This document shows positions 10,659 through 11,834 of a DNA stretch of 12,874 nucleotides, one piece after another. Below the pieces are notes generated by a model. That model had not been told where the DNA came from. It saw only the letters and a list, made by a program, of their open reading frames with translations, and searched no databases. The stretch is taken from assembly GCA_024276825.1 (NCBI GenBank), contig JAJRWI010000035.1:1-12874 (forward strand), given 5' to 3'. This stretch comes from an archaeon (lineage in GTDB: Archaea; Asgardarchaeota; Thorarchaeia; Thorarchaeales; Thorarchaeaceae). Both the position numbers and the translations under genes were made by a program. How positions within the stretch are numbered: position 1 is the first letter of the stretch; every line of letters begins with the position of its first letter.

Positions 10659-10703
10659 TATAAATCCCGTGAGATTCATCAAGTAAAACGAAATAAAGTT
10701 TTG

Positions 10704-10712
10704 GGAATTTCA
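10704..10712 (+). repeat. Left target-site duplication GGAATTTCA
   Basis: Identical to 11711-11719. The match extends to 10 bp (GGAATTTCAA) if the IS starts at 10714. Confidence 0.88.
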
Positions 10713-10730
10713 AGCCCTGTGTAAAAAGTC
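10713..10730 (+). repeat. Left terminal inverted repeat AGCCCTGTGTAAAAAGTC
   Basis: The reverse complement of 11693-11710 is GGCTCTGTGTAAAAAGTC. Mismatches are at positions 1 and 4. Confidence 0.9.
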
Positions 10731-10751
10731 GTTGATGTAATACAAAGATTA

Positions 10752-10772
10752 GTGACCAGACTGACTGGTCAC
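10752..10772 (+). promoter_or_regulatory. Perfect 8-bp inverted repeat just upstream of the transposase start
   Basis: GTGACCAG-ACTGA-CTGGTCAC ends 7 nt before ATG 10780. A regulatory role is inferred from position only. Confidence 0.45.
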
Positions 10773-10779
10773 ATGATCT

Positions 10780-11694
10780 ATGAACTACCAGACATCATAT
10801 GACGCAGCCAGGTCTCGTCATCTTCAGTTCCTACTTGATGAACTTATCAAGCTTAGTAATATGGTCCCCACCAAGACCTCCAACTTTGGGAGACCCGTAG
10901 AGTTCCCTCTTCATACTCTCTTTGTCCTTCTGGGACTCAAGTTCGACTCCAGACTCGGGTACAGGACCTTCATCTCCCATCTCAACTCCAATCCGTACCT
11001 GCTCCAATGTCTTGGACTCAAGATGTCCCCCTCCTACTCACTCCTCCAACAGGCACTTAAACGACTGAACTCTCAACTCCTCCATCGCATGTATCAACTC
11101 CTTGCCCGGAAGAGACCCCCTCCAAGGAACATCGCGGTGGACTCCACAGGGTTCTCCCACTCCACCGGTGGAGAGTGGATGTCGTTGCGCCTCAAGAGGA
11201 CCCTGAAACGGCGTTTCACCGCACTTCACGCAGCCGTGGACACTGGCACACTCATGATCCATGCAGTGCGTGTACGAGCATGACCGGGCGGTGACGCAAA
11301 GGAGATGGTCCCACTCCTAAGACACGTGCCATCTCGGAATCTTGAGAATGTCTATGCTGACAGGGCCTACATCTCACGAAGGAATGTCCAACACATCCAT
11401 GACCTGGGGGCGTGTCCTGTGATCGAACCGAAGAAGAGGTTGAAGGCCCGGTCCCGGGGACACCGGGGATACAAGGAGTTGCTCGTAGAGTATCGACGAG
11501 ACCCTGAGGAATGGAGACGGGTCCATGAATATGGAAAGAGGAGTCTAGTGGAGACCGTGTTTGGAATGCTGAAGGTGAGGTCAGGTGGGGGGTTGAGTTC
11601 AAGAAGACACAAGGAGCAGCGGCGTGAGTTATTGATCAAGGTGGTCCTTCACAACATTCAACGTCTGAACCTCTTGGAGTGTGACGGGAGGTGA
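10780..11694 (+). pseudogene. IS5-family DDE transposase interrupted by a single in-frame TGA at 11281-11283
   Basis: Track ORFs 10780..11283 and 11305..11694 are in the same frame and join as HAVRVRA*PGGDAKEMVPLL. The first D is in IAVDSTG, the second D in VYADRAY, and the E is in YGKRSLVETVFGMLK, an exact Y(2)R(3)E(6)K signature. The stop separates the first D from the other two catalytic residues. Confidence 0.85.
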
Positions 11695-11710
11695 CTTTTT
11701 ACACAGAGCC
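11693..11710 (-). repeat. Right terminal inverted repeat GACTTTTTACACAGAGCC
   Basis: Pairs with 10713-10730 and overlaps the transposase stop codon (11692-11694). Confidence 0.9.
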
Positions 11711-11719
11711 GGAATTTCA
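11711..11719 (+). repeat. Right target-site duplication GGAATTTCA
   Basis: Identical to 10704-10712. Confidence 0.88.
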
Positions 11720-11803: not shown

Positions 11804-11834
11804 TAATGCATGTATGACCAAGGAGTTAAATGAT

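Follow-up and report, generated by a model that had tools for sequence, protein, structure and literature searches.

Positions 10780 to 11694 of the window, by which we mean the whole 12,874-nt stretch of Thorarchaeota DNA analysed here, raise the question of whether a transposase gene can carry a structural message beneath its protein-coding one. The initial annotation had read the complementary blocks along this gene as the two arms of a rod-like hairpin of ~780 nt (10911–11694), written into the gene through its choice of codons. A rod of this kind would have meant a new layer of transposon regulation, and the claim fails. The apparent rod is probably an effect of base composition in a dead copy of an IS5 element, whereas the compositional gradient from which it arises is itself real and family-wide.

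The stretch from 10713 to 11710 (plus strand, 998 bp) is an IS903-like insertion sequence of the IS5 family, bounded by inverted ends and a target duplication and having every structural feature of such an element except an intact transposase. An inverted-repeat search located its 18-bp terminal repeats on the plus strand, AGCCCTGTGTAAAAAGTC on the left (10713–10730) and GACTTTTTACACAGAGCC on the right (11693–11710, also placed by homologous ends), the right one overlapping the stop codon of the transposase. The repeat returned by the search was 26 nt long; its excess over 18 bp is a palindromic part of the target duplication, a 9-bp sequence, GGAATTTCA, that can be read from the DNA at 10704–10712 and again at 11711–11719. 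Terminal inverted repeats are likewise conserved in homologous copies, whose ends (n = 16 compared) follow the consensus GGCTCTGTGTGAAAAGTC...CTTTTCACACAGAGCC with 9-bp duplications adjoining, as seen at the copies L001, L003 and L013.

The transposase frame (10780–11694, plus strand), defined from open reading frames and homologs, comprises 304 codons and a stop, and contains one in-frame TGA that divides it into two open reading frames in the same frame, 10780–11283 and 11305–11694. The DDE_Tnp_1 domain (PF01609) is matched by the C-terminal part at 43.8 bits (cut-off 23) and by the whole frame at 71.7 bits, and an alignment of 30 proteins shows no variation at D121, D194, E258, Y251, R254 and K265, with the motif Y-(2)-R-(3)-E-(6)-K. 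Relatives of the transposase are uninterrupted proteins of 304 aa, annotated as IS5-family, from Thorarchaeota and other Asgard MAGs. The closest bacterial relatives belong to the IS903 group (IS903, ISAha2, IS17, ISEc35, ISVa2 and ISPpa3), which resembles the window element in a length of about 1 kb, a single DDE_Tnp_1 transposase of ~305 aa with the DDE triad and the YREK motif, inverted ends of ~18 bp, a 9-bp duplication, and a right repeat that contains the stop codon. The archaeal element differs from this group in its host, in a protein identity of only 26–29%, and in its gradient, which is missing from the bacterial members examined.

The in-frame TGA at codon 168 (11281–11283, plus strand) stands where homologs have Arg, encoded mostly by CGA and in some cases by AGA or other codons. 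Among 89 full-length copies of the family, 12 have premature stops, the window copy included, and the other 11 are interrupted at other codons by TAG, TAA or TGA (codons 4, 11, 49, 67, 280, 282 and others). The stop at codon 168 is found in the window copy alone, and we therefore rejected the idea of a programmed recoding site. Judged by its reading frame, the window copy is an inactivated element that has undergone ordinary decay, in which a single C-to-T change after insertion would have turned codon 168 from CGA into TGA.

The raw materials of the proposed rod are present in the sequence. All 18 of the complementary block pairs that were checked were found in place or at most 4 nt away (the three that are off by 4 are split blocks, in which the tested sub-block begins 4 nt inside the longer stretch), and they fall on near-constant anti-diagonals, with coordinate sums of 22610–22618 and 22565–22576. 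The best 9-wide anti-diagonal band of the window copy lies at 22617, matching the initial annotation. The asymmetry between a C- and pyrimidine-rich 5' half and a G- and purine-rich 3' half is also real and extends to all three codon positions; it exceeds that of every other ORF among 1478 of the host with 250 aa or more.

The predicted fold is a different matter from the claimed rod. Whether 10911–11694 or the whole element is folded, the minimum free energy (MFE) structure holds just 29 of the 116 listed pairs, and these 29 constitute one long-range stem of ~32 bp between 10999–11041 and 11575–11619 (plus strand), which is the only long-range stem predicted with high probability (0.8–0.99). 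The perfect 10-bp helix at 11095/11481 has a pair probability of 0.44, nearly all other listed helices have probabilities near 0, and the interior of the fold is branched. G-U pairs had been thought to favour the sense RNA, but folding of the antisense strand is no weaker (-286.0 versus -281.5 kcal/mol). The side hairpins to which shifts of register had been ascribed are 34% and 60% paired in 42 homologs, and are thus unconserved.

Shuffled controls placed what pairing there is within reach of composition. Against dinucleotide shuffles of the whole sequence the MFE of the window copy had a z of -0.5 on each strand, and against dinucleotide shuffles inside 50- or 100-nt blocks, which keep the skew and flatten composition inside the blocks, a z of about -1. 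The block shuffles were the more rod-like, with 82–86 band pairs versus 64 in the window copy, 85–88 long-range pairs versus 55, and a ladder distance of 135–137 versus 119; their 5'/3' complementarity scores were equal to that of the window copy (98–99 versus 94). When synonymous codons were shuffled within each half, the check that the initial annotation had itself proposed, the MFE of the window copy had a z of -1.6, with 4 of 55 shuffles as low, its complementarity had a z of 0.1, and the measures of rod shape were again higher in the shuffles. Skew-preserving shuffles are thus about as stable as the real sequence and equally collinear, the outcome that the initial annotation had said would refute its rod. 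Detrended correlation across offsets gave no sign of fine-scale composition mirrored about the proposed axes: the outer axis had a correlation of -0.15 to -0.3, within about 1.4 sd of other offsets, and the inner axis had the wrong sign.

The homologs gave no more support to a rod. Our alignment contained 42 distinct full-length genes of exactly 915 nt, gapless, with 60–79% protein identity to the window copy. Across these, the 116 proposed pairs were 65.1% paired, compared with 65.3% when partners were shuffled, and their covariation score was 0.127, compared with 0.126 in the shuffles. The stem that is predicted with high probability in the window copy (10999–11041/11575–11619) was 56–68% paired in the homologs and showed no covariation, and many proposed pairs were broken in most of them (167/885, for example, was paired in 2 of 42). 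RNAalifold recovered no consensus structure: its 64 pairs had -13.9 kcal/mol, compared with -19.8 +/- 2.7 for alignments shuffled by permuting codon columns inside 15-codon blocks. Folded singly, the homologs gave MFE structures with 35–170 long-range pairs in registers whose anti-diagonal sums span some 600 nt, and any one long-range pair occurred in 10 of the 42 at most. As far as folding models and aligned homologs can tell, the gene is not a conserved structured RNA of rod-like shape, as energy and shape on the one hand and shared pairs on the other both speak against it.

We also considered co-adaptation of the two arms within single lineages. Chimeras built from 5' and 3' halves of different lineages had a ddG of +6.3 kcal/mol per two chimeras, each folding at about -300, and each lost about 8 long-range pairs; stability fell by ~1%, and a junction effect could explain the losses. 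Lineage-specific co-adaptation was rejected, since halves from different lineages are nearly interchangeable.

Comparison with RNAs that do fold back sharpens the distinction. In the fold-back inhibition of IS10 and IS50, read-through transcripts form a short, specific helix that hides the start codon together with the ribosome-binding site. The initial annotation had proposed something alike, in which self-pairing of the transposase RNA would restrain its translation, but the present family conserves no specific helix, and the proposed rod does not reach the start codon. Since the rod begins at 10935, 155 nt downstream of the transposase ATG, the predicted structure is not obviously a case of masked initiation. 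Viroids and hepatitis delta virus have rods that are about 70% paired in one unbranched, conserved and covarying register. The proposed rod would share with them long-range pairing of 5' and 3' parts over the whole molecule; it differs in that 25% of its pairs are predicted, its interior is branched, and the registers of homologs differ.

The composition of the gene is the more unusual feature. GC skew runs along the transposase gene from about -0.45 to +0.4, through a pyrimidine-rich (C and T) arm at 10850–11150 (plus strand; GC skew -0.2 to -0.5, at all three codon positions) to a purine-rich (G and A) arm at 11400–11694 (plus strand; GC skew +0.2 to +0.6). The change in GC skew from first to last third, 0.69, is the largest among the 1478 host ORFs of at least 250 aa (z 6.2; the next is 0.41), and the corresponding change in purine content has a z of 5.6 against the same ORFs. 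The asymmetry is one of purine versus pyrimidine, in which T tracks C and A tracks G. Part of it belongs to the protein, which is rich in Leu, Ser and Pro at its N-terminus and in Arg, Glu, Lys and Gly at its C-terminus.

The gradient is nonetheless largely found at synonymous sites, and so is not dictated by the protein. All 42 homologs share the switch: the skew at 4-fold degenerate sites goes from -0.60 to +0.44, and the pooled counts at these sites are G118/C404/A177/T418 for the opening sixth of the gene and G377/C142/A219/T116 for the final sixth. Purines at 4-fold sites rise in the family from 0.25 in the first third to 0.7 in the last, with 24–34% in the 10850–11150 arm and 61–81% in the 11400–11694 arm, and stratification by codon box and the base that follows leaves an odds ratio of 3.3 in favour of a purine in the last third relative to the first. 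Homologs with 60–70% protein identity, compared in pairs, have an identity of only ~0.47 at 4-fold sites. Codon choice shifts between the first and last thirds within every degenerate amino acid: CTC and CTT fall from 82% to 28% of Leu codons; GTC falls from 50% to 19% of Val codons as GTG rises from 17% to 63%; TCN falls from 71% to 39% of Ser codons, with a shift to AGY; and CGY falls from 41% to 6% of Arg codons, with a shift to AGR. Relative to the composition of 4-fold sites in the host (A.32, T.30, G.16, C.22), the first third has gained C and lost A, and the last third has gained G and lost T.

The same gradient is present in 22 of 22 further family members from 61 Thorarchaeia genomes, down to 48% identity, and absent from the ORFs that neighbour those 22 copies. 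It is weak in relatives at 28% identity. A mobile-element family thus keeps its codon choice polarised along the gene over many hosts, and full-text searches of the literature turned up no account of IS elements with an intragenic purine/pyrimidine codon gradient.

Several ordinary causes were tried and set aside. An overlapping or antisense ORF was rejected, as alternative frames that stay open in 90% or more of the homologs run to 72 codons at most. A gradient of translation speed was rejected, as host codon adaptation is flat along the gene (0.58–0.75). Codon bias imposed by neighbouring bases was rejected, as host genes have no such context effect and the gradient survives stratification. 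An effect of the protein family was rejected, as the gradient is absent from six bacterial IS903-group genes.

On the sequences compared, then, the gradient is real, family-wide, and unexplained by the protein, sequence context, host codon adaptation or an overlapping ORF. Established strand-asymmetric mutation processes (deamination, and the biases of replication and transcription) yield skews of G+T against A+C. The present asymmetry is one of purine against pyrimidine, unlike those known skews, and for that reason makes selection on the nucleic acid the likelier source, ahead of mutation bias. Purine loading, or Szybalski's transcription-direction rule, is one parallel, and the pyrimidine-rich transcripts of hydrophobic proteins (PMC1262711) are another. 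They share with the gradient an asymmetry of the coding strand that is purine/pyrimidine and not keto/amino and is partly tied to amino-acid make-up, but here the sign flips inside one 0.9-kb gene and the asymmetry persists at 4-fold sites after control for codon box and neighbouring base.

How such a gradient could give rise to an apparent rod may be outlined as follows. The element would have inserted between two divergent host genes, duplicating 9 bp of target. Its C/T-rich first third and G/A-rich last third would cause short complementary words to stack on many anti-diagonals, and the words along any one of these could be chained by a careful reader into what looks like a 780-nt rod. In the transcript of either strand, the predicted effect is to exchange local pairing for long-range 5'–3' contacts in no fixed register, with nothing gained in total stability; this register-free stickiness may be a selected function, or a side effect of another need of the element that is itself two-fold symmetric. 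Strongly skewed sequences always offer chains of complementary words, and skew-preserving controls together with comparison of homologs are needed to expose them. The notion of a second code carried by codon choice survives in part: a position-dependent synonymous signal does make the ends of the gene broadly complementary, but the shuffles, the lack of covariation and the lack of a consensus structure leave no room for a code of base pairs.

This exchange was predicted by folding in silico. Shuffling the whole sequence lowered the number of long-range pairs from 78 to 30 and left the MFE slightly lower (-276 versus -270); because the shuffled MFE is no higher, the gradient redistributes pairing without adding stability. 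Isolated arms fold at -0.29 to -0.30 kcal/mol per nt, the same as the centre and as their own shuffles. Intact homologs, unlike the window copy, showed a modest excess over their own shuffles: in 13 of 14 the MFE was lower and long-range pairs were more numerous, with 96 pairs versus 73 for synonymous shuffles in 33-codon blocks and 96 versus 69 for dinucleotide shuffles in 60-nt blocks (mean z of pairs about +1.3 to +1.5, mean z of MFE about -1.2 to -1.8), although the sequences are kin and counts across them overstate their independence. The 5'/3' complementarity of all 42 homologs was 4–8% above local-composition nulls, with a mean z of 0.5–1.4 depending on the null. In these models, more than 90% of the complementarity is composition, and the remainder is generic to the family and register-free. 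The small but consistent excess in intact homologs may come from weak selection for a fold-back whose register does not matter; another possible source is a limit of the null models, given kinship and blocks that flatten fine structure.

The first of these possibilities leads to a bolder proposal, namely that the IS lineage evolved position-dependent synonymous codons for a fold-back that is register-free, robust to mutation and available to the transcript of either strand. With its 5' third rich in C and U and its 3' third rich in G and A, a finished transcript would close on itself, which could stabilise the RNA, flag it for host surveillance, or allow translation during the co-transcriptional round only. 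The gradient is held at synonymous sites over a diverged family, and its particular changes, C for A in the 5' third and G for T in the 3' third, are those that raise inter-arm G-C pairing; it also lifts long-range pairs from 30 to about 70–96, and nearly all intact homologs exceed their local shuffles, as described above. We nevertheless consider selection for this fuzzy fold-back to be rather unlikely, as the total folding energy is no better than that of a fully shuffled sequence, the arms are not kept open for each other (each alone folding like the centre and its own shuffles), the excess over composition is small, and co-adaptation within lineages does not go beyond a possible junction effect. 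Moreover, the most skewed part begins about 150 nt past the start codon, and the antisense strand shows the pattern equally. Were the proposal true, it would describe an RNA 'structure' that is compositional and not pair-specific, restraining or timing transposase expression, or engaging or evading host RNA surveillance; composition alone could then encode a tendency to fold back that covariation methods do not see.

The gradient might instead serve another purpose of the nucleic acid, such as an antisense transcript over the 5' third, with purine loading of the opposite strand, insulation from read-through transcription on either side, or a DNA property of the arms during synapsis. We regard this as unlikely. 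The pattern is symmetric on both strands, and selection, rather than protein or sequence context, would account for the gradient. Antisense RNAs against the 5' regions of transposase genes are known in IS10-type systems and lend the first variant some precedent; visual inspection of the arms, however, showed no conserved TATA-like box or T-tract. IS10 regulation is treated in the literature (e.g. PMC5006887).

Less probable again is a mutational footprint of transposition, left by repair synthesis or single-strand exposure acting from both ends. The two-fold symmetry of the pattern about the middle of the element fits action from both ends, and the gradient is strongest at 4-fold sites. An asymmetry of purines and pyrimidines would, however, need transversion biases, and deamination of cytosine on an exposed strand predicts that T should go up where C goes down, whereas T is rarest (0.13) in the C-poor third. 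Rare transposition would also, we infer, have to hold skews of +/-0.5 against host mutation pressure, and the bacterial relatives of the IS903 group, whose DDE chemistry is presumed to be the same, have no gradient. Finally, a specific, conserved hairpin of ~780 nt encoded pair by pair through codon choice is extremely improbable: aligned blocks, a best band at 22617 and one 32-bp stem of high predicted probability are in its favour, but 87 of 116 pairs are missing from the fold, covariation and a consensus structure are lacking, and shuffles are equally stable and collinear. Composition, with a gradient that is real and shared by the family, thus remains our preferred reading of the apparent rod.

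Other features of the element and its surroundings deserve mention. Several stretches of the alignment, columns 154–168, 575–596 and 751–785 among them, are almost invariant at synonymous sites in the 42 homologs (GGACTCAAGTTCGAC, GGTGACAAGGCCTACATCTC and TATGGAAAGAGGAGTCTTGTGGAGACCGTGTTC are examples), to a degree that exceeds the need of protein conservation. Upstream of the gene, a perfect 8-bp hairpin with a 5-nt loop, GTGACCAG-ACTGA-CTGGTCAC, can be read at 10752–10772 (plus strand), 7 nt before the start codon. Homologs of the closest clade retain most of this hairpin, whereas more distant clades have other sequence in its place; it might control initiation of the transposase.

The short spacer that holds the element has divergent host genes on its two sides, a 792-aa ORF on the minus strand with its 5' side at 10682 on the left, and an ORF starting at 11814 on the right, the N-terminus of which we take to resemble ADP-forming acetyl-CoA synthetase. 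Because the spacer between these divergent genes is short, the insertion may have displaced promoters of the neighbours. The IS5-like family is common in Thorarchaeota: it was found in 19 of 61 Thorarchaeia genomes, compared with 1 of 61 for IS256-type and 0 of 61 for IS630-type elements. Of the types searched, it is apparently the chief DDE insertion sequence of Thorarchaeia. Further copies of the family, 83–93% identical, lie in the genome that carries the window (G000) on contigs C42 (64824–65262), C29 (10524–10643) and C13 (1–109); two of these three are cut off at a contig end, which indicates that the family breaks the assembly.
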